Source: Christensenellales bacterium (lineage in GTDB: Bacteria; Bacillota; Clostridia; Christensenellales; Aristaeellaceae). From it: 64,000 nucleotides of DNA. The translations under genes and the position numbers were made by a program. Below the pieces are notes generated by a model that was given only the letters and a program-made list of their open reading frames with translations, had not been told where the DNA came from and made no database searches. Shown in pieces: positions 18,598 through 56,493 of this stretch. The stretch is from positions 54,970-118,969 of the forward strand of contig JAXGZL010000003.1 of assembly GCA_040776985.1 (NCBI GenBank). The letters run 5' to 3'. Position 1 is the stretch's first letter, and the number at the start of each line of letters is the position of its first letter.

Positions 18598-18697
18598 ATC
18601 CCCTTCTCGTAATCATTTCGTCATATTCAGTATAGCATAGTTCGCGCTGTGCATACAAGAGATCTGGCTGGCCGTGTGGCCTTGCGGCAAAAAGAAA

Positions 18698-18722
18698 AGG
18701 AGAGGGCTTTTCGCCCCCTCCT
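18698..18722 (-). terminator. intrinsic terminator hairpin (left copy of a duplicated 25-mer)
   Basis: On the minus strand: AGGAGGGGGCG-aaaa-GCCCTCTCCT followed by TTTTCTTTTT. Identical 25-mer at 18931-18955. Confidence 0.6.
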
Positions 18723-18729
18723 GAGAGAG

Positions 18730-18923
18730 TCGACAAAGTGTCTGCGGACACTTTGTCGTTTTAGAAGAACGGGCATTTTCGCTTGGGAACAAAGTTCCCG
18801 GCCAGCGAAAATGCGTGGAATGCATTGCTTCGCAATGCCCCGCCCGCCCGGCAAAGCCGGGCGATACGATTTCACTCAGAGGACTGTGCCCTCTGAAACA
18901 CCCCCTTTGATTTAGTTTGTCTA
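18730..18923 (-). repeat. ~193-bp multi-hairpin repeat element, copy A (forward orientation is on the minus strand)
   Basis: The reverse complement aligns over its full length, with about a dozen differences, to 35538-35730. Contains five perfect or near-perfect hairpins. Confidence 0.85.
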
Positions 18924-18930
18924 AAGTCTG

Positions 18931-18955
18931 AGGAGAGGGCTTTTCGCCCCCTCCT
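18931..18955 (-). repeat. right copy of the duplicated terminator hairpin (no U-tract on the minus strand)
   Basis: 25/25 identical to 18698-18722. The stem is extended by TCTGAGG/CCTCAGA. Lies 16 nt after the peroxiredoxin stop. Confidence 0.7.
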
Positions 18956-18972
18956 CAGATGCTGTGAACCGA

Positions 18973-19659
18973 TCAGGCCTTGTCCTTCTTGAAGCAGAGG
19001 AACCAGTCCAGACAGGTGATGTCCTCGTCCTTGCCTTCCATGCGCTCCTTGGCGGTGCCGCAGGAGCCGGCCGGGGGCACGATGACATCCTGGCCGGGGC
19101 GCCAGTCGGCCGGGGTGGCCACCTGGTCGCTGTCCGCCTTCTGCAGGGCCAGCACGATGCGCTTAAGCTCGTCAAAGTTGCGGCCGGTGGACAGCGGATA
19201 GTACAGGATGGTGCGGATGATGCCCTTGGGGTCAATCACAAACACGGCGCGCACCGCCTGGGTGTTGCTCTGGCCAGGCTGGATCATGCCATACTTGTTG
19301 GCAACCTCCATGCGGATGTCCTCAATCAGCGGGAAGTGGACCTCCACGTTCTTCATGCCCTTCCACTCCAGCTCCTGGATGCGGCGCAGCCAGGCGATGT
19401 GGGCGTAGAGGGAGTCCACGGACAGGCCGACCAACTCGGTGTTGATGGCCTTGAACTCATCCGACATGGTGGCAAAGGTCATGAACTCCGTGGTGCAAAC
19501 CGGCGTAAAGTCAGCGGGGTGAGAGAAAAGGATGACCCACTTGCCCTTGTAATCCTCCGGGAAGTTGAGGGGGCCCTGGGTGGTGACTGCCTTGAACTCC
19601 GGGGCCTTGTCGCCGATCAGGGGCATGCGGTTGTAGGTGATGGTCTGTGTGTTTTCCAT
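18973..19659 (-). CDS. peroxiredoxin (Prx1/Prx6-type thiol peroxidase)
   Basis: Peroxidatic Cys motif FSHPADFTPVCTTE. ~228 aa with a C-terminal Cys-containing extension. Confidence 0.9.
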   Translation of the reverse strand: MENTQTITYNRMPLIGDKAPEFKAVTTQGPLNFPEDYKGKWVILFSHPADFTPVCTTEFMTFATMSDEFKAINTELVGLSVDSLYAHIAWLRRIQELEWKGMKNVEVHFPLIEDIRMEVANKYGMIQPGQSNTQAVRAVFVIDPKGIIRTILYYPLSTGRNFDELKRIVLALQKADSDQVATPADWRPGQDVIVPPAGSCGTAKERMEGKDEDITCLDWFLCFKKDKA

Positions 19660-26934: not shown

Positions 26935-28929
26935 TTACTGCAGTTTGCTGGTGGCCACAAAACCGCGGGCCGGCTGGTTGTTCACGGTGGTTTCCACATA
27001 GGTCCAGTGGTTGTCATCCCCAGTGTAGGCAAGGGCCGTGACCGGGGTGCCGGCGGGAAGAACGGCCAGGCGTCCGTCCAAAGGCTTCATGATGGGGTCG
27101 TCGGTGAGGTTGCCCTCGGCATTCATGGTCATCGGGACGCTGGAAAGGCGGAGGGCGCCCACCGTCACATCAGCGGGCACAGCGGACTGGTCCACATAGC
27201 CGATGCGGTAGAGATTGTCGCCATAGCCGTAGCCAATGAGCGCCCAGCCATCCACCACGCCATAGATGCGGCAGCGGCCTCTGGACACATGGGCCTGACC
27301 GCCTGCTGCCCGCAGGTAGTTGGTTCCGGGCCCGGTGTAGACATCAAAGGCGCCGGTGAGGGCGGAAGTCTTGAAGTTGGGCAGCGGCTGCAGGCTGACC
27401 GGGGGCGGGGTGGGCTCTTCCGTCGGTTCCGCGGTGGGTTCAGCAGTAGGTTCAGCAGTGGGCTCCGCGGTGGGTTCCGCAGTCGGTTCGGCTGTGGGTT
27501 CCGCGGTTTCCGTAGGTTCAGTGGTGGGTTCCGCGGTTTCTGTTGGATCTGCGGAAGGCACAGGGCTGGGGGAAGGGGTCGGCGTGGGCGTGACCACCAC
27601 AGCCGCCTTGTAGATGAAGGTGACGCTGGGCGGGGTCACGCTGCTGTCTGCGCCCACGGTCACGGTGACGCTGCGCTCACTCTGCAGGGTGTAGCCTTCC
27701 GGCACCAGGGCATCGTTGGCAGTGATGACATTCTCGCCCTGGGTGACCTTCTGGTTTTCATTGTGAAGGGGATTGTTGTCGGTGTCCACGTAGTGGACCG
27801 GCAGGTCCGCCGTGGCGGGCGCCTTGAAGGTGAAGGTGACAGAGGGGGGCGTGGCCACGCCGTCGGCGCTCACCTGGACGGTGACGCTGCCGGGTCCCTG
27901 CAGGGTAAAGCCATCCGGCACATAGCTGGTGTTGGCGGTCACGGTGTGGCTGCCCTGGGCCATGTTGATCTGATCGGTTTTGAAGGTTTCCCCTTCGGTG
28001 CTGACATAGTTGACGGGCACCATCACCGTCACCGGCGCCTTGCGGTAGACAAAGCTGATGACGGCGGGGTTGGCCACGCCGCCAGCGGACACGGTGACGC
28101 TGACCGTCCTGACGCTGGTGAGGGTGTAGCCCTCCGGCACCAGGGAGTCATTGGCGGAAACCTGGGTGATGCCCTGGGGCAGGGTGACGGTTTGACTGGT
28201 GATCAGCTTGTTGTCCGTATCCAGGTAGTTGACGGTGATGTTGGCGGTGACAGGCGGCGTCTCCTTATAATAGGTGAAGGTGACAGAAGGGGGCGTGGCG
28301 CGGCTGTCAGCGCTGACGGTGACCAGCACCTGGGTCTGCCCGGTAAGGAAATAGCCGGCGGGCACACGGGAGGGATTGGGACGCACGGTGGTGCGGCCCT
28401 CAGCCAGGGGGAGGACATCGGTAAACAGCCGCTCCCCGGTGGTGCTCATGTAATAGACCGGCACGTTCACAATCACCGGCGGCCTGACGGTGGGGCTTGG
28501 GGTGACATCCACCGGCGCAAACACCACATTGGGGTCCTGATACAGCTTGGTGAGGGTTTTCACCCCGGCGATGCCATCCTGGGTCAGCTTGTTATAGTAC
28601 TGGAAGCGCTCCACCGCCCGCTTGGTCTGCTGGCCGTAGATGCCGTCCACAGCGCCAGTCAGATAGCCCAATTCCTTTAGGCGCAGCTGCATCACGCGCA
28701 CGTTCTCGCCCCGGTCGCCCACATACAGCGTGGTCATCCTGGGGGTGGAGGTGGGCACAGGCGCCGGGGTGCTGGTGATATAGACCGGCGTGGGGCTGAT
28801 GGTGACCACCGGCGTGGGGGTCTGGAACTGGGTGGGCATGGGGGTGAGGGCAGGCAGCTGAGACACCCCCGAGGTCAGTAAAACGGTCATATAGACCAAC
28901 AGTGTTTTCAACAGATCCATCTCGTTCAC
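26935..28929 (-). CDS. secreted cell-wall-associated protein (PG_binding_1, MucBP-like repeats, Pro/Thr/Glu linker, SH3-like C-terminus)
   Basis: Signal peptide, LKELGYLTGAVDGIYGQQTKRAVERFQ PG-binding motif, five ~70-aa repeats (...VNYLDTD...VPEGYTL...VTF.YK), and an (AEPT)n linker. Confidence 0.7.
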   Translation of the reverse strand: MNEMDLLKTLLVYMTVLLTSGVSQLPALTPMPTQFQTPTPVVTISPTPVYITSTPAPVPTSTPRMTTLYVGDRGENVRVMQLRLKELGYLTGAVDGIYGQQTKRAVERFQYYNKLTQDGIAGVKTLTKLYQDPNVVFAPVDVTPSPTVRPPVIVNVPVYYMSTTGERLFTDVLPLAEGRTTVRPNPSRVPAGYFLTGQTQVLVTVSADSRATPPSVTFTYYKETPPVTANITVNYLDTDNKLITSQTVTLPQGITQVSANDSLVPEGYTLTSVRTVSVTVSAGGVANPAVISFVYRKAPVTVMVPVNYVSTEGETFKTDQINMAQGSHTVTANTSYVPDGFTLQGPGSVTVQVSADGVATPPSVTFTFKAPATADLPVHYVDTDNNPLHNENQKVTQGENVITANDALVPEGYTLQSERSVTVTVGADSSVTPPSVTFIYKAAVVVTPTPTPSPSPVPSADPTETAEPTTEPTETAEPTAEPTAEPTAEPTAEPTAEPTAEPTEEPTPPPVSLQPLPNFKTSALTGAFDVYTGPGTNYLRAAGGQAHVSRGRCRIYGVVDGWALIGYGYGDNLYRIGYVDQSAVPADVTVGALRLSSVPMTMNAEGNLTDDPIMKPLDGRLAVLPAGTPVTALAYTGDDNHWTYVETTVNNQPARGFVATSKLQ
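27415..27550 (-). repeat. in-frame 12/15-nt tandem repeat encoding (PTAEP/TEPTE)n linker
   Basis: ggttc(c/a)gc(g/a)gt(g/a)gg units repeated about 8 times. Translates to TAEPTAEPTAEPTAEPTAEPTAEP. Confidence 0.8.
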
Positions 28930-32104: not shown

Positions 32105-32794
32105 ATGAAATGGATCTGCAAAATCTGCGGCTATATCCACGAAGGGGACGCGCCGCCCGCCATTTGTCCGGTCTGCAAGGCTGACAGCAGCAAGTTTGAG
32201 CTGCTGGAGGAAAAACCCGCAGAAAGCAAACAGGCAAAAAAAGAGAAAACACTAGCCCGCTGGATCTGCAATGTCTGCGGCTATATCCACGAAGGGGATG
32301 CGCCGCCGGATATCTGCCCGGTGTGCAAGGTGGGCAGGGAGCATTTTGAGCCCTATGAGCGCCAGCGCGTCTTTGCGGAGATGCACCGCCTGGGGGTGGC
32401 CCGTGGCGTGGACAGCCAGGTCTTCGCGGGCATCAAGGCCCAGTGCCTGGCCGCCTGTGAGGATGTGGGGCAGTGTCTGGCCATGGCCCGCGCGGCGGAC
32501 CGGGAGGGATATCCCGAGGTGGCGGAGGCGCTGCGCCGCATCGCCCAGGAAAAGTCCGGCCACGCGGCCAGGCTTTATGAGCTGATGGGGGAAGGGATTG
32601 CCCCGGAAAGCGAGGGCAATCTGCGCCTGCTGACGGAGGCGGAGTTGACCGGCTGTCAGGAGGCGAAGGCCATCTCCCAAAGGGCAGGGGCCCTGGGCCT
32701 GGAGGAAATCCGCGACGCCCTGCTTGAGATCGCCCGGGACCGGGCCAGGCATGGCCGGGCGGTGGAGGGGCTGCTGAAAAGACTGTTCTCCTGA
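32105..32794 (+). CDS. tandem rubredoxin-like domains fused to a rubrerythrin/ferritin-like four-helix domain
   Basis: Two copies of W-I-C-x-x-C-G-Y-I-H-E-G-D-A-P-P-x-I-C-P-V-C-K, then ~130 aa resembling the rubrerythrin di-iron domain. Confidence 0.7.
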   Translation: MKWICKICGYIHEGDAPPAICPVCKADSSKFELLEEKPAESKQAKKEKTLARWICNVCGYIHEGDAPPDICPVCKVGREHFEPYERQRVFAEMHRLGVARGVDSQVFAGIKAQCLAACEDVGQCLAMARAADREGYPEVAEALRRIAQEKSGHAARLYELMGEGIAPESEGNLRLLTEAELTGCQEAKAISQRAGALGLEEIRDALLEIARDRARHGRAVEGLLKRLFS

Positions 32795-32943: not shown

Positions 32944-35502
32944 ATGGAAAAGACATTGAGCATCCCTTCCCGGATCACCAAGCGCAGTGGCAACCAGGAG
33001 GCTTATGACAGCCGCAAAATCCGGGAGGCCATCCGCAAATCCTTCCTGGGGACCGATACCCAGGTTTCAGACAGCAAGCTGGACGCGCTGGTGGAGCAGG
33101 CGGAGGCGCTGATCATCCGGGAGATCGCCGCGGGGCAGGCTTTCTCGGTGGAGTTTGTGCAGGACAAGGTGGAGCAGGCGCTGATGGAGGCGGACTGCTT
33201 CCCCCAGGCCAAGGCCTATATCCTCTACCGGGAAACCCGGCGCAGGCTGCGGGAGGACAGGCAGCGCCTGCTGGCCTTTTTCCCGGATCTGCCGCCCCTG
33301 GCCCAGACCCTGGCGGGCATTGGGCGGGATTTCCCCGCGGAGCCCTATTCCCTGGGGGCGCTGAACCGCAAATTCCAGTCCCTTTATAAGGAAGACAGGG
33401 AGCTGGAGGAGCGGGTGGCGCTGCTGGTGCGCGCCGCCCTGGAACTGACCGACAAGGAAGCCTCCCGCTGGGAGATGATCGCGGGCAGGCTGTACAGCTG
33501 CCTGTACCACTACCGCCTGGAAGACCGGGTCAGGAAGCTGGGAATCAACAGCTATCCTGAAAAGATGCGCTACCTGGACCGGGAAGGCCTGCTGGCAAAG
33601 TCCATGCTGGAAACCTATTCCCAGGCAGATCTGGAAGAAGCCTATCAGCTGATCCAGCCGGAGCGGGATCACCTGCTGCCCTATTCCGGGCTTGACCTGC
33701 TGGTGCGCCGCTATGTAATCCATGACCGGAAGCACCGGGGGCTGGAGAGCATCCAGGAGATGTACCTGAACATCGCCCTGTTCCTGGCCATCCCGGAAAA
33801 GCCGGACATGCGCCTTTATTGGGTGAAGCGCTTCTATGACATGCTGAGCCTGCTTTTGGTCACCATGGCCACCCCCACCCTGACCAACGCCAGAAAGCCC
33901 TATCACCAGCTGAGCTCCTGCTTCATTGACACGGTGCCCGATGACCTGCAGGGCATCTACCACAGCATCTCCAACTTCGCCAATGTCTCAAAGTTCGGCG
34001 GCGGCATGGGCCTGTATTTTGGCAAGGTGCGCGCCCATGGCTCGGACATCCGGGGCTTTGAGGGGGCAGCCGGCGGGGTAATCCGCTGGATCCGCCTGGC
34101 CAATGACACCGCCGTGGCGGTGGACCAGCTGGGCGTGCGCCAGGGGGCAGTGGCGGTGTACCTGGACGTGTGGCACCGGGACCTGCCGGAGTTTTTACAG
34201 CTGCGCACCAACAACGGGGATGACCGGATGAAGGCCCACGATGTCTTCCCGGCGGTCTGCATGCCGGACTACTTCTGGCAGCAGGTGCGCGACAACATCG
34301 AGGGGGACTGGCACCTCTTTGACCCCCATGAGATCAGAAAGAAAAAGGGCTGGGCGCTGGAGGACAGCTTTGGCGAGGCCTGGACAGAGAAATACCGGGA
34401 ATGCGTGGCGGACCAGACCCTGAGCCGCCGGGTGATCCCCATCAAGGAGCTGGTGCGCCTGGTGATCAAGTCCGCCGTGGAGACCGGCACCCCCTTTGTT
34501 TTCAACCGGGACCTGGTGAACCGGATGAACCCCAACCCCCACCAGGGGATGATCTACTGCAGCAACCTGTGCACGGAAATCGCCCAGAACATGAGCGCGG
34601 TGCAGGGGGTGTCCCAGGAGATTAAGACCATTGACGGGGAAACGGTGGTGGTGAACATCACCAAGCCTGGGGACTATGTGGTGTGCAACCTGGCCAGCCT
34701 CAACCTGGGCCGCATCCAGGTGGAGGACAAGGAGGAGCTGGAAAGCCTGATCACAGCCGGCATCCGGGCCCTTGACAATGTGATTGACCTGAACTATTAC
34801 CCGGTGCCCTATGCCCAGGTCAACAACAAGCGCTACCGCCCGGTGGGCCTGGGGGTGAGCGGCTATCACCACATGCTGGCCAAGCGCTTCATCGACTGGG
34901 AGACGGAGGAGCACCTGAAGTTCGCCGACCAGGTGTTTGAGGACATCAACTACTTCGCCATCGCCGCCAGCAACAGCCTGGCCAGGGAAAAGGGCAGTTA
35001 TCCGCTCTTCCCCGGAAGCGACTGGGAGAACGGGGAATATTTCGCCAAACGGGACTATGATTCCCCCCGCTGGCAGGAACTCAAGGAACAGGTGGCAAAG
35101 GATGGCCTGCGCAACGGCTATCTGTTGGCCGTGGCGCCCACCTCCAGCATTTCCATCATCGCCGGCACTACGGCGGGAACCGACCCCATCATGAGCCGCT
35201 TCTACTATGACGAGAAGAAAAATGGCCTCATTCCAAGGGCTGCGCCGGACCTGGACGCGGACACCTACTGGTATTACAAGAGCGCCCATCAGATCAACCA
35301 GCTCTGGTCCGTCCGGGCCTGCGGCGTGCGCCAGCGTCATGTGGACCAGGCCCAGAGCATGAACCTCTACATCACCAACGACTACAGCTTCCGCCAGGTG
35401 CTGGAACTGTACATCAGCGCCTGGGAAGAAGGGGTGAAAACCATCTACTACATCCGCTCCAAATCCCTGGAGGTGGAGGACTGCGAAAGCTGCTCCACCT
35501 GA
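32944..35502 (+). CDS. nrdA: class Ia ribonucleoside-diphosphate reductase alpha subunit
   Basis: N-terminal ATP-cone, active-site SNLCTEI, and a C-terminal CESC redox pair, 852 aa. Confidence 0.92.
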   Translation: MEKTLSIPSRITKRSGNQEAYDSRKIREAIRKSFLGTDTQVSDSKLDALVEQAEALIIREIAAGQAFSVEFVQDKVEQALMEADCFPQAKAYILYRETRRRLREDRQRLLAFFPDLPPLAQTLAGIGRDFPAEPYSLGALNRKFQSLYKEDRELEERVALLVRAALELTDKEASRWEMIAGRLYSCLYHYRLEDRVRKLGINSYPEKMRYLDREGLLAKSMLETYSQADLEEAYQLIQPERDHLLPYSGLDLLVRRYVIHDRKHRGLESIQEMYLNIALFLAIPEKPDMRLYWVKRFYDMLSLLLVTMATPTLTNARKPYHQLSSCFIDTVPDDLQGIYHSISNFANVSKFGGGMGLYFGKVRAHGSDIRGFEGAAGGVIRWIRLANDTAVAVDQLGVRQGAVAVYLDVWHRDLPEFLQLRTNNGDDRMKAHDVFPAVCMPDYFWQQVRDNIEGDWHLFDPHEIRKKKGWALEDSFGEAWTEKYRECVADQTLSRRVIPIKELVRLVIKSAVETGTPFVFNRDLVNRMNPNPHQGMIYCSNLCTEIAQNMSAVQGVSQEIKTIDGETVVVNITKPGDYVVCNLASLNLGRIQVEDKEELESLITAGIRALDNVIDLNYYPVPYAQVNNKRYRPVGLGVSGYHHMLAKRFIDWETEEHLKFADQVFEDINYFAIAASNSLAREKGSYPLFPGSDWENGEYFAKRDYDSPRWQELKEQVAKDGLRNGYLLAVAPTSSISIIAGTTAGTDPIMSRFYYDEKKNGLIPRAAPDLDADTYWYYKSAHQINQLWSVRACGVRQRHVDQAQSMNLYITNDYSFRQVLELYISAWEEGVKTIYYIRSKSLEVEDCESCST

Positions 35503-35537
35503 TCGTGGCGCCATATGGTTTGTCTGAATTCAGAATG

Positions 35538-35730
35538 TAGACAAACTATATCAAAGGGGTGTTTCAGAGGGCACAGCCCTCTGAGTGAAATCGTATCGCC
35601 CGGCTTTGCCGGGCGGGCGGGGCATTGCGTAGCAATGCATTCCACGCATTTTCGCTGGCCGGGAGCCAAGCTCCCAAGCGAAAATGCCCGTTCCTCCTAA
35701 ACGACAAAGTGTCCGCAGACACTTTGTCGA
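35538..35730 (+). repeat. ~193-bp multi-hairpin repeat element, copy B
   Basis: Aligns to the reverse complement of 18730-18923. Hairpins: CAGAGGG/CCCTCTG, CGCCCGGC/GCCGGGCG, GCATTGC/GCAATGC, GCATTTTCGC/GCGAAAATGC enclosing GGGAGC/GCTCCC, and CGACAAAGTGTC/GACACTTTGTCG. Confidence 0.85.
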
Positions 35731-35735
35731 CACTC

Positions 35736-35770
35736 AAAGGCCCGCATCCTGTGATGGATGCGGGCCTTTT
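35736..35770. terminator. bidirectional intrinsic terminator (nrdA / nrdR)
   Basis: 14-bp stem AAAGGCCCGCATCC-loop-GGATGCGGGCCTTT, flanked by an A-run and a T-run. Confidence 0.8.
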
Positions 35771-35783
35771 CAGCGAAACAATA

Positions 35784-36266
35784 TCAGTGGCTGCCCAGGT
35801 CGTCCTTCATGCGGTTTTCTTTCATGATGCGGCTGAGCTCATACATGAAGGTGGGGATGTCGGTGAACTGGCGGTAGACCGAGGCGAAGCGGATGTAGGC
35901 CACCTCATCCAGCTCCCGCAGGGCTTCCATCACCCGCTCGCCGATTTGGTGGGTGGTGATCTCCTGCTGCATGCTGTTGTAGGCGAACTGTTCCACCTGG
36001 GTGACAATCCGGTCAATGTCCTGGGCGGCCACCGGGCGCTTGTGGCAGGCGTGGATGATGCCCGCCCGGATCTTGTCCGCGTCAAACAGCTCCCGGGTCT
36101 GATCCTTTTTGATCACCAAAAGGTGGATGGTCTCCACCTTTTCATAGGTGGTGAAGCGCTTGCCGCAGGCGATGCACTCCCGCCTGCGCCGGATGCTGGC
36201 GCCGTCATCGGTTGGCCTGGAGTCCACCACCCGGCTGTCCTCGGAATTGCAAAACTGGCATTTCAT
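35784..36266 (-). CDS. nrdR: transcriptional repressor NrdR
   Basis: MKCQFC...CIACGKRFTTYE zinc ribbon plus an ATP-cone, 160 aa. Confidence 0.93.
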   Translation of the reverse strand: MKCQFCNSEDSRVVDSRPTDDGASIRRRRECIACGKRFTTYEKVETIHLLVIKKDQTRELFDADKIRAGIIHACHKRPVAAQDIDRIVTQVEQFAYNSMQQEITTHQIGERVMEALRELDEVAYIRFASVYRQFTDIPTFMYELSRIMKENRMKDDLGSH

Positions 36267-39079: not shown

Positions 39080-39994
39080 TCAGGCAGCCTTGTCGGCGGC
39101 CGCTTCAAACAACAGCTGGTACAGGGACTGAAGCGCTTCGGTCAGACGGGGGCCAGGGACGGTGAACAGGTCGCTTTCCACATGGATCACCTGGTTTTCC
39201 TTGACGGCGATGATGTCCTGCCAGCCCTTGCGGGCCATGACCTCTTCCTCGGGCCGGGGGCCTTCCCCAAAGTACATGGTGGTGGTGAAGATGTAGTCCG
39301 GGTTGCGGCTGATGACCTGCTCCTCAGACACCTCGGCCCAGGCGGGACTGTCGGCAAAGATGTTGTCAAGGCCCACTTTTGCGCCCAGCTCGTCCATGAA
39401 GCAGCCCTTGCCGGCGGCCCACAGGCCCCAGGCCAGGGGGGAAGCCTCGTAGTAGGCGCTGCCGGCCTTCTTACCGTCAACTTTCTTGACGATCTCATCA
39501 AAGGAGGCGGTCATGTCCGCCACCAGCTTTTCCGCCTCGGCGGTTTTGCCGGTAACCTGGCCCAGCAGGGTGATGGCCGCATAGACGTCGGCGATGTCCT
39601 GGGCATCGGTCACCAGGGTCAGGATGCCGGCTTTCTCCAGGGCTTCGATGTGCTCCACGCTCTGAGCCATCTTGGTCATCACCACCACATCCGGCTTAAG
39701 CGCGATGATCTGCTCCAGGTTGGTTTCCTGGCCGGACTTGACGGCCTCCACCTCCTGCACCTGGGCAGGATAGTTGCAGTATTCGCCCCTGCCCACCACC
39801 GTGTCGCCTGCGCCAATGGCATACAGAATCTCGCAGTCGCCGGGCATCATCACCACCACGCGCTCCGCCGGCTTTGCGAAAGCCAGCTCGCGCCCGGTCA
39901 TGTCGGTCACCTTCAGCTCTTCCGCAAGAGTGGGCACCGTCAGGGACATCAGCATCACAAGGGTCAGAATCAGGGAAAGTCTGCGCTTTTTCAT
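39080..39994 (-). CDS. periplasmic-binding-protein (BtuF/FhuD type) lipoprotein or secreted substrate-binding protein
   Basis: Signal peptide MKKRRLSLILTLVML and a PBP type 2 pattern. First gene after the cobalamin riboswitch. Confidence 0.8.
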   Translation of the reverse strand: MKKRRLSLILTLVMLMSLTVPTLAEELKVTDMTGRELAFAKPAERVVVMMPGDCEILYAIGAGDTVVGRGEYCNYPAQVQEVEAVKSGQETNLEQIIALKPDVVVMTKMAQSVEHIEALEKAGILTLVTDAQDIADVYAAITLLGQVTGKTAEAEKLVADMTASFDEIVKKVDGKKAGSAYYEASPLAWGLWAAGKGCFMDELGAKVGLDNIFADSPAWAEVSEEQVISRNPDYIFTTTMYFGEGPRPEEEVMARKGWQDIIAVKENQVIHVESDLFTVPGPRLTEALQSLYQLLFEAAADKAA

Positions 39995-40039
39995 CAGGGG
40001 TTTCCTCCTCCAGTTGATCAAATGAAACCGGGCAGCCCC

Positions 40040-40245
40040 TTATGGAACTGCCCGAAAGCATACGCGTGTCATCGCGCCCCACCGCAGGAGCTGATCGCAC
40101 GCCTCGGTCTCCCGGCTTGGCTTCATCCGCTCAGACGCCTTCCCGCTTGCGCAGTGGCCGATGGTCTGATTGTCCGCTTCACGGTTACTGGGTTAGCCTG
40201 GAATTTTCATCCATGTTCCCTGGCGCGGGTTGCCCCTTGCCAGGC
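40040..40245 (-). promoter_or_regulatory. cobalamin (B12) riboswitch
   Basis: Minus strand contains ...AGGGAACATGGATGAAAATTCCAGGCTAACCCAGTAACCGTGAAGCGG...GGCCACTGCGCAAGCGGGAAGGC... with the B12 box GCCACTG at 40152-40158, then the hairpin GGGCAG...CTGCCC before the RBS. Confidence 0.85.
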
Positions 40246-40370
40246 GCGCGCAACTGTTCATTTGTCATGTGAAGTATACCCTGCGCACATTACCCTGTCA
40301 ACGCAAAAGGGCCTTGTGCAGGGCCCTTGATGCGGTTACAATCCCCTTAGCAAGATATCAGGAGGCAACA

Positions 40371-56258: not shown

Positions 56259-56375
56259 ACCGGTGGCAAAGGCGAAGGGGCCCCACCTGTTCTCATCCCG
56301 AACACAGAAGTTAAGCCCTTCAGCGCCGATGGTACTTGGCTGGAAACGGCCCGGAAGAGTAGGTCGCCGCCGGTT
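56259..56375 (+). rRNA. rrf: 5S ribosomal RNA
   Basis: ...CCCGAACACAGAAGTTAAGCCCTTCAGCGCCGATGGTACTTGG...GAGTAGGTCGCCGCCGG, ~117 nt. Confidence 0.9.
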
Positions 56376-56430: not shown

Positions 56431-56485
56431 CAGCGCCTTGGACCTTGGCTGGAAACGGCCCGGAAGAGTAGGTCGCCGCCGGTTA
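56431..56485 (+). pseudogene. 55-nt duplicate of the 5S rRNA 3' portion
   Basis: CAGCGCCttGGacCTTGGCTGGAAACGGCCCGGAAGAGTAGGTCGCCGCCGGTT against the genuine 56321-56375. Four substituted positions (56438, 56439, 56442, 56443), clustered near the 5' end of the copy. No 5' half is present. Confidence 0.8.
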
Positions 56486-56493
56486 CCAAGAGA

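Follow-up and report, generated by a model that had tools for sequence, protein, structure and literature searches.

We found that the DNA at positions 35538-35730 of the window (the whole 64,000-nt stretch analysed here) lies within one of two copies of a small repeat, and that this repeat is probably a non-autonomous, non-coding, MITE-like transposable element of about 205 nt, mobilised in trans, that belongs to digester Clostridia. Its size, lack of coding content, inverted repeats, target duplications, dispersed copies and presence/absence polymorphism are the structural features of a MITE. Indels disrupt the reading frames, which differ from copy to copy; this argues that the element is non-coding.

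The interval is situated inside the 281-nt spacer between two convergent genes, one encoding the large subunit of ribonucleotide reductase (RNR; 32944-35502, + strand; Pfam ATP-cone, Ribonuc_red_lgN and Ribonuc_red_lgC) and the other encoding NrdR (35784-36266, − strand; Pfam Zn_ribbon_NrdR and ATP-cone, on an identical protein). The element found there, which we denote copy B, slightly exceeds this interval, running from 35531 to 35735 on the + strand (CAGAATGTAGAC...GTCGACACTC, about 205 nt). Its boundaries come from alignment to the second copy and from an empty site in a sister strain (L106), and it scores 206.9 bits with the family covariance model, R1. The second copy, copy A, occupies 18723-18930 on the − strand (CAGACTTTAGAC...GTCGACTCTCTC; 194.5 bits with R1), with a peroxiredoxin gene upstream of it (18973-19659, − strand; Pfam AhpC-TSA and 1-cysPrx_C). 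The partner of 35538-35730 was recovered at 18720-18931 (−) both by a repeat search (188 nt, 93% identity) and by BLAST (207 nt, 92.75%). The two copies were the only matches in the window to a 24-nt probe, where none is expected by chance, and a scan of the window with the family covariance model likewise matched copies A and B alone.

Several other repeats and structured sequences were observed in the window. Just upstream of the RNR gene, an ORF for a rubrerythrin-like protein (32105-32794, +) holds a 91-nt direct repeat (32111-32351, 80% identity) that corresponds to two rubredoxin-like domains. A minus-strand ORF at 26935-28929, whose product has a peptidoglycan-binding domain and PT repeats, contains at 27410-28317 seven overlapping 36-nt copies, mostly at 12-nt spacing, along with repeats of 216-225 nt. 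There is a cobalamin riboswitch at 40088-40259 (−, 63.9 bits), upstream of the minus-strand ORF 39080-40021. Finally, 55 nt at 56439-56493, about 110 nt downstream of a 5S rRNA gene (56259-56375), are 93% identical to the 3' half of 5S rRNA and look like a truncated 5S duplicate closing the rRNA operon.

Copies B and A each fold as five consecutive hairpins (predicted energies −97.7 and −93.3 kcal/mol), with z-scores of −7.8 for B and −7.4 for A relative to dinucleotide-shuffled sequences; folding is just as stable on the opposite strand (z = −8.4). In copy B, all on the + strand, these are H1 (TCAGAGGG-CACAG-CCCTCTGA, 35564-35584), H2 (CGCCCGGC-TTT-GCCGGGCG, 35597-35615), H3 (GCATTGC-GTA-GCAATGC, with a GNA triloop, 35622-35638), H4 (35646-35687) and H5 (CGACAAAGTGTC-CGCA-GACACTTTGTCG, 35702-35729). 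H4 consists of an outer stem (GCATTTTCGCT/AGCGAAAATGC), an internal loop and an inner stem-loop, while H5 is a perfect palindrome; H1 and H5 are found both in the single folds and in the consensus structure. The left terminal inverted repeat of copy B, read from the alignment of the family, is GAATGTAGACAAAC (35533-35546, +), and the right one, from the alignment and with its junction to the target set by the empty site, is CTTTGTCGACACTC (35722-35735, +); the distal arm of H5 extends into the right terminus of the element. The family consensus has the ends CAGAATGAAGACAAAC...CACTTTGTCGACACTC, within which GAATGAAGACAAAC matches the reverse complement of the right end, GAGTGTCGACAAAG, at 11 of 14 positions. 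These imperfect 14-nt repeats become perfect over 10 nt (AGACTATCGA) in locus L005.

Pairwise alignment of copies A and B revealed 15 differences (93% identity), and it bore out what the earlier note had read from the two copies. In the inner stem of H4, copy B has GGGAGC-CAA-GCTCCC (35661-35675) where copy A has GGGAAC-TTT-GTTCCC, so that a G:C pair faces an A:T pair by a double change and all three loop bases differ. The 3' arm of H1 is CCCTCTG in B and TCCTCTG in A, a change from G:C to G:U, and H3 differs in its loop alone (GTA or GAA). The note's further claim, that the remaining differences fall in unpaired linkers, was accurate for part of them; others affect the element's termini or the 3' strand of a long-range helix that has little support. 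Pairing is kept at 3 of 3 differences within well-supported stems. From the sequences, the H4 loops CAA and TTT may be related by inversion, as CAA differs from the reverse complement of TTT by one change; in the family alignment this loop is AAA in some and TTT in other near-identical relatives.

To place the window copies in a family, we scanned reference genomes with a pattern built on H3 and the 5' arm of H4, and metagenomes with a pattern built on the H5 stem. The patterns sit on different parts of the element, and thus in each set the other hairpins were unascertained. The reference genomes yielded 8 loci, 7 of them in the digester MAG "Clostridiales bacterium AS08sgBPME_466" and 1 in an uncultured Christensenella MAG, and the metagenomes yielded 87 loci, nearly every one sampled from a bioreactor or an anaerobic digester. 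Together the two scans gave 69 near-full copies, of which 50 are distinct. These occupy at least 46 distinct sites, which are intergenic and fall in several uncultured Clostridia. The flanks of the other copies are unrelated to the window DNA, which indicates a dispersed family present in several species. We found no match to the element in Rfam 15 at gathering score or at E up to 10, none by BLAST in phage and plasmid collections, and none in viral contigs scanned with the H5 pattern. Two end patterns gave only chance-level matches in the viral contigs, the best being 25 nt in L235 with the rest of the element missing; another, in L231, falls inside an integrase coding region. A literature search for the element sequence itself found no description, and the element looks like a previously undescribed miniature mobile family of uncultured digester Clostridia.

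Copies elsewhere vary in size around 205 nt, from 150 to 470 nt, and no size class has an ORF. In "long-form" copies the H2 loop holds a structured, hairpin-rich insertion of about 175 nt (for example L006 5280-5458 on the − strand and L071 2260-2438; also L020, L034, L039, L044, L086 and L088). These insertions differ from one another and have in common only a central 51-nt palindrome, which occurs in either orientation. Shorter deletion forms of the element also exist, and two sets of relatives (L067/L090 and L031/L040/L060) have the same ends, H1 and H5, with other hairpins inside. At L012 436-463 a solo H5 palindrome (CGACAAAGTGTCTGCGGACACTTTGTCG) stands between a stop codon and a terminator with the rest of the element missing; this could be what is left of a full copy, or a minimal relative. 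Five contigs (L003, L004, L008, L104 and L105) end inside or right beside the element, which indicates that the repeat breaks short-read assemblies. The hairpins flanking the left part in L004 and the right part in L008 are nearly identical, and the two parts may belong to a single locus. At L057 3283-3523 the left flank is that of the L022 site (1831-2071) and the right flank that of the L029 site (1940-2179). This mosaic arose either by recombination between two copies of the element or as an assembly chimera joined across the repeat.

Evidence that the element moves comes from strains 97-99% identical to the window, which provide empty sites for both copies; apart from the missing copy, they show no visible change. 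Copy A is missing from L099, L100, L101 and L103, in which a single terminator hairpin follows the peroxiredoxin gene, while the filled allele reads hairpin, element, hairpin and T-run, with a 25-nt direct repeat flanking the element. The left copy of the duplicated target, AGGAGGGGGCGAAAAGCCCTCTCCT (18931-18955, −), is the peroxiredoxin terminator hairpin without its T-run, as judged from the 25-nt repeat and the single hairpin of the empty alleles. The right copy together with the T-run (18688-18722, −), recognised by the direct repeat and its terminator-like site, is predicted to be the functional terminator. After the peroxiredoxin stop codon and before the left hairpin, the filled allele carries a block of 15-17 nt (18956-18972, TCGGTTCACAGCATC) unrelated to that of the empty alleles (CCCAAAGGCAGGACCCA; L099 1864-1880, L100 1423-1439, L101 903-919, L103 758-774), even though the sequence around it is about 98% identical. 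A search of the retrieved loci gave no further occurrence of either block. The difference is either an earlier polymorphism linked to the insertion or the trace of an event more complex than a staggered cut.

Copy B is missing from the sister strain L106, where the junction is clean (..GGTTTGTCTGCATTC|AAAGGCCCGC..) and the duplication amounts to 0-2 nt. This empty site sets the insertion of copy B between ..GTCTG(C/A)ATT(C) and AAAGGCCC. At the right end of copy B lies the target terminator (35736-35770), an A-run, a hairpin (GGCCCGCATCC/GGATGCGGGCC) and a T-run; this terminator is unchanged in the empty allele and serves NrdR on the − strand and the RNR gene on the + strand. Copy B thus sits directly beyond the NrdR terminator, between convergent genes. 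Copy B is a mobile insertion, missing in a sister strain and placed relative to the NrdR terminator; it is no feature of the nrdA 3' region as such, where the earlier note had listed it.

The same relation to terminators is found across the family. Direct repeats of 20-36 nt abut the element ends in 18 of the 46 copies (about 40%) at a score of at least 12, for example with 28 of 28 positions matching in L029 and L015, whereas 0.7% of mismatched left/right flank pairs, taken as a control, reach that score. These flanking repeats are made up of an A-run and a GC hairpin, in many cases with a T-run as well; that is, they duplicate the terminator hairpin. In most copies the right end adjoins an A-run and GC hairpin whether or not the left duplicate is present, and the right flanks have a median minimum free energy of −16.5 kcal/mol compared with about −12.5 kcal/mol in controls. 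On the right-hand side, 36 of 43 sites have a convergent gene as neighbour, and its end lies 35-60 nt from the element. Since the right end abuts the A-run and hairpin of the terminator, the element, seen from the convergent gene, lies right after the U-tract and is antisense as drawn. Co-directional contexts comprise 20 antisense and 6 sense copies, with copy A among the sense cases. We considered and rejected attC sites, retron msr/msd, IS110 bridge RNA, TnpB omega RNA and integrase att repeats as identities for the element, because the flanking repeats are target-derived and differ per locus and no such genes are adjacent.

The earlier note had proposed, from two copies, that the preserved pairing came from selection for a folded hairpin, of RNA or DNA, and not from a dead repeat decaying neutrally, and it had rightly called this evidence only suggestive: three stem positions differ between A and B. 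The test with more copies, which the note had called for, was made on the 50 distinct copies, aligned with plain MAFFT and fitted to no structure. The RNAalifold consensus has 58 pairs, made up of H1 to H4, a weak long-range helix (GGGG/CUCC) around them, and H5. Standard pairs fill 98.1% of the cells, compared with 92.2% in column shuffles and 38-45% when pairing partners are slid. Both sides have changed at 24 of the 58 pairs, against 10.4±1.6 in column shuffles (0 of 500 reach the observed number) and 2-9 in slid controls, and compensated cells number 153, against 40.5 in column shuffles and 6-11 in slid controls. With more copies aligned, covariation is therefore present and the stems are not freely disrupted, which supports the proposal of selection on a fold.

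The double changes are distributed over four pairs of H2, three of H3, seven outer and three inner pairs of H4, and six of H5. The stems of H2 occur as CGCCCGGC/GCCGGGCG, CGAGCGGC/GCCGCTCG and CGCGCGGC/GCCGCGCG, with changes such as CC/GG to AG/CT or GC/GC; those of H3 as GCATTGC/GCAATGC, GAATTGC/GCAATTC and GGTTTGC/GCAAACC; and the outer stem of H4 as CGC/GCG, CCC/GGG and CCA/TGG. The double changes in H5 are seen in L002, L018, L025 and L052, which vary within the bases of the H5 search pattern and thus entered the set through neighbouring copies or the other scan. H1 shows little covariation because it is nearly invariant in the core family; in the divergent relatives L002 and L067 the hairpin is kept with its bases changed. 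Not only stems are kept, as the single-stranded linkers GTGAAATCGTATC, GGGCGGGGC and ATTCC persist even in divergent relatives. The inner stem of H4, which has G-C/A-T in the window copies, shows tandem G.A/A.G at these places in the major subfamily.

On which copies does this selection act? Private mutations are mildly depleted in stems (0.21 vs 0.34 per site), and older shared variants are more so (0.33 vs 0.81), such that the ratio falls from 0.62 to 0.41 with age. As private alleles are only mildly depleted, older variants more strongly, and the constraint holds between subfamilies, selection seems to act on the lineages that propagate and not clearly on each resident copy, with residents drifting.

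In the local hairpins the minor cells are about 22 G:U and about 18 A:C, without asymmetry. As these are about equal, they point to neither strand, and the covariation fits RNA and single-stranded DNA alike. Two fixed G.U pairs and changes from G-C to G-U in the possible closing helix favour the strand as drawn. By consensus there is no sigma-70-like promoter in or beside either window copy, and the orientation relative to neighbouring genes is mixed across loci.

The element can be compared with several kinds of known mobile DNA. Bacterial MITEs combine terminal inverted repeats and target duplications with a predicted secondary structure that is stable (PMC10969869; PMC6199540). The present element resembles MITEs such as bcr1-bcr18 of the Bacillus cereus group, ERIC, Correia and RUP/BOX/SPRITE in being small, multi-copy, intergenic and non-coding. 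The ends of most such MITEs, however, pair into one long hairpin, and their duplications are short and fixed (TTTAT for bcr1), whereas this element has five independent local hairpins, terminator-specific insertion and duplications the length of a hairpin. For that target behaviour, the closest precedent would be IS1630, an IS30-family element of Mycoplasma fermentans, whose target duplications of inverted repeats are put at 16-26 bp in PMC3317919 and at 19-26 bp in PMC2853133. IS1630 targets inverted repeats derived from rho-independent terminators and duplicates them at variable length, with some copies lacking a duplication, and the present element does likewise. IS1630 is an autonomous 1.4-kb element with 27-bp inverted repeats and a DDE transposase, unlike the present element of about 205 nt, which is non-coding and has 14-nt imperfect repeats; its duplications, up to 36 nt, also lie beyond the range reported for IS1630. 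Group IIC introns, too, home just downstream of intrinsic terminator stem-loops, in fixed orientation to the terminator, but they are ribozymes of at least 0.7 kb, usually with a reverse transcriptase ORF and without target duplication, and we found neither intron domains nor an Rfam match in the element. Terminator homing and hairpin duplication in a non-coding element, together with five covarying hairpins and an orientation rule, is an unusual combination.

Based on these comparisons, we propose that the element is mobilised in trans by a transposase, absent from the examined sequences, that would recognise its target much as IS1630 does. If the transposase made a short staggered cut at the terminator's foot, a linear duplex target would be left with a tiny duplication, and the same cut on a hairpin extruded as a cruciform would duplicate the whole hairpin. 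Folding of a single-stranded form, DNA or RNA and of either strand, would matter for spread or for tolerance, placing the constraint on hairpins in the lineages that propagate, with no gene-specific function at nrdA. The interior hairpins could serve a single-stranded DNA or RNA stage in propagation, or could make transcripts of either strand tolerable or beneficial; template switching inside the hairpins is less likely to have contributed through mutation. Against this model, double-stranded cut-and-paste or copy-and-paste transposition gives no reason for five conserved hairpins, so the link drawn here between mechanism and structure is a proposal.

Several other observations count against this explanation. 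We looked for an autonomous element sharing these ends and detected none in the window or in the roughly 790 kb of loci retrieved; outside the known copies the end motif occurs only in the relatives L067 and L090. Searches of the same sequences with E. coli IS30 InsI (tblastn and phmmer) returned no IS30-like transposase at E below 0.1, clustering of the ORFs from all loci returned no transposase-like family in multiple contexts, and Pfam found no transposase among ten window ORFs. Moreover, the inverted repeats at the ends are short and contain mismatches, a long duplication is not obvious in over half of the copies, and a simple staggered cut fails to explain the 15-17-nt block to the left of copy A.

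Alternatively, the element could move as single-stranded DNA by means of an HUH-type enzyme, as do the IS200/IS605-derived PATEs and the RAYT-mobilised REPINs, although we regard this as unlikely. REPs, REPINs and PATEs are short palindromic mobile DNAs at gene 3' ends, in which the hairpin of a REPIN or PATE is conserved as the substrate of mobilisation and the HUH enzymes recognise a conserved tetranucleotide. If the hairpins here were structures recognised by such an enzyme or by the replication fork, the preservation of pairing in propagating lineages would be directly explained. Such a route is consistent with hairpins that form equally on both strands, with the lack of a G:U over A:C excess (about 22 vs 18 cells) and with the existence of the solo H5 palindrome. 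It also suits the GC-GNA-GC form, a very stable DNA mini-hairpin, which is found in H3 (35628-35632) and, in the major subfamily, at the H4 tip as well. The orientation bias of 20 to 6 would follow from strand-specific insertion at forks, given a strong gene-strand bias. The target sites argue otherwise. To our knowledge, HUH single-strand transposition gives no target duplication and IS200/IS605 elements are without terminal inverted repeats; REPINs and PATEs likewise have neither target duplications nor such terminal repeats, while the present element has both. Its 20-36 nt duplications occur in about 40% of copies, one of them (copy A) associated with the insertion itself, and beyond the A/T run there is no conserved target motif of 4-5 nt. 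Nor did an HUH gene come to light in the course of the other searches.

The covariation raises a second alternative, namely that the element works first and foremost as a structured non-coding RNA serving the cell, be it an sRNA, a 3'-UTR module or an antisense module, and that mobility is only its means of spread. Strong covariation in four of the five hairpins is what such an RNA would show, as is the retention of the three linkers in divergent relatives, and the variable-length expansion of the H2 loop resembles the variable domains of functional RNAs. The G.U pairs of the possible closing helix favour the drawn strand, other bacterial MITEs are transcribed and give rise to sRNAs (PMC10969869), and the folds of bcr elements are conserved (PMC6199540). 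Nevertheless, the reading seems improbable to us in view of the missing Rfam family at E up to 10, the lack of a sigma-70-like promoter at either window copy and the absence of G:U over A:C asymmetry in the hairpins. The element sits just past terminators, mostly antisense and elsewhere sense, where read-through would transcribe no one strand consistently. In addition, private mutations are almost as frequent in stems as in loops, and sister strains lacking one or the other copy show no other visible change.

A third idea, to which we give slightly less credence and which we regard as doubtful, is that the multi-hairpin core takes an active part in transposition as a cofactor, a single-stranded DNA or RNA scaffold that steers an enzyme to the junction of extruded terminator hairpins or to the 3' ends of terminated transcripts. 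If true, this would amount to homing to terminators guided by structure and not by sequence, and it would explain both the hairpin-length duplications and the orientation rule.

Compensation could, finally, be mutational rather than selected, if template switching within a hairpin (quasipalindrome correction) copied changes from arm to arm and inverted loops, with no function needed. Template-switch mutation can create and maintain hairpins, and the AAA/TTT flips of the H4 inner loop in near-identical copies, the window pair CAA and TTT being one change apart if inverted, and the equivalence of both strands are all of a kind with it. We consider it very unlikely as the main cause, however, since the five hairpins remain 96-99% paired in copies that diverge by up to about 20% while linkers and loops vary, one subfamily consistently tolerates a non-Watson-Crick tandem G.A, and rare alleles are increasingly depleted in stems with age (0.62 to 0.41), a signature of selection. 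That the agreement between A and B is mere chance in a decaying dead repeat, conceivable while two copies with three differing stem positions were all there was, is refuted for practical purposes by the 50 copies, since none of the 500 shuffles came up to the real alignment on any measure, and all slid controls fell far below it.

The MITE-like element that we favour would extend the rare IS1630-type pattern, terminator homing with duplication of the hairpin, to a non-coding element in a distant phylum, and its natural filled and empty alleles are available for studying how homing to terminators works. Its example also indicates that abundant covariation alone need not mean a functional RNA gene, and covariation screens for non-coding RNAs will catch such elements. 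For the host, an insertion alters the 3' end of a gene by doubling its terminator or by separating the gene from it. The family therefore matters for annotation, through assembly breaks and altered 3' ends, and possibly for the expression of nrdR and the peroxiredoxin gene.
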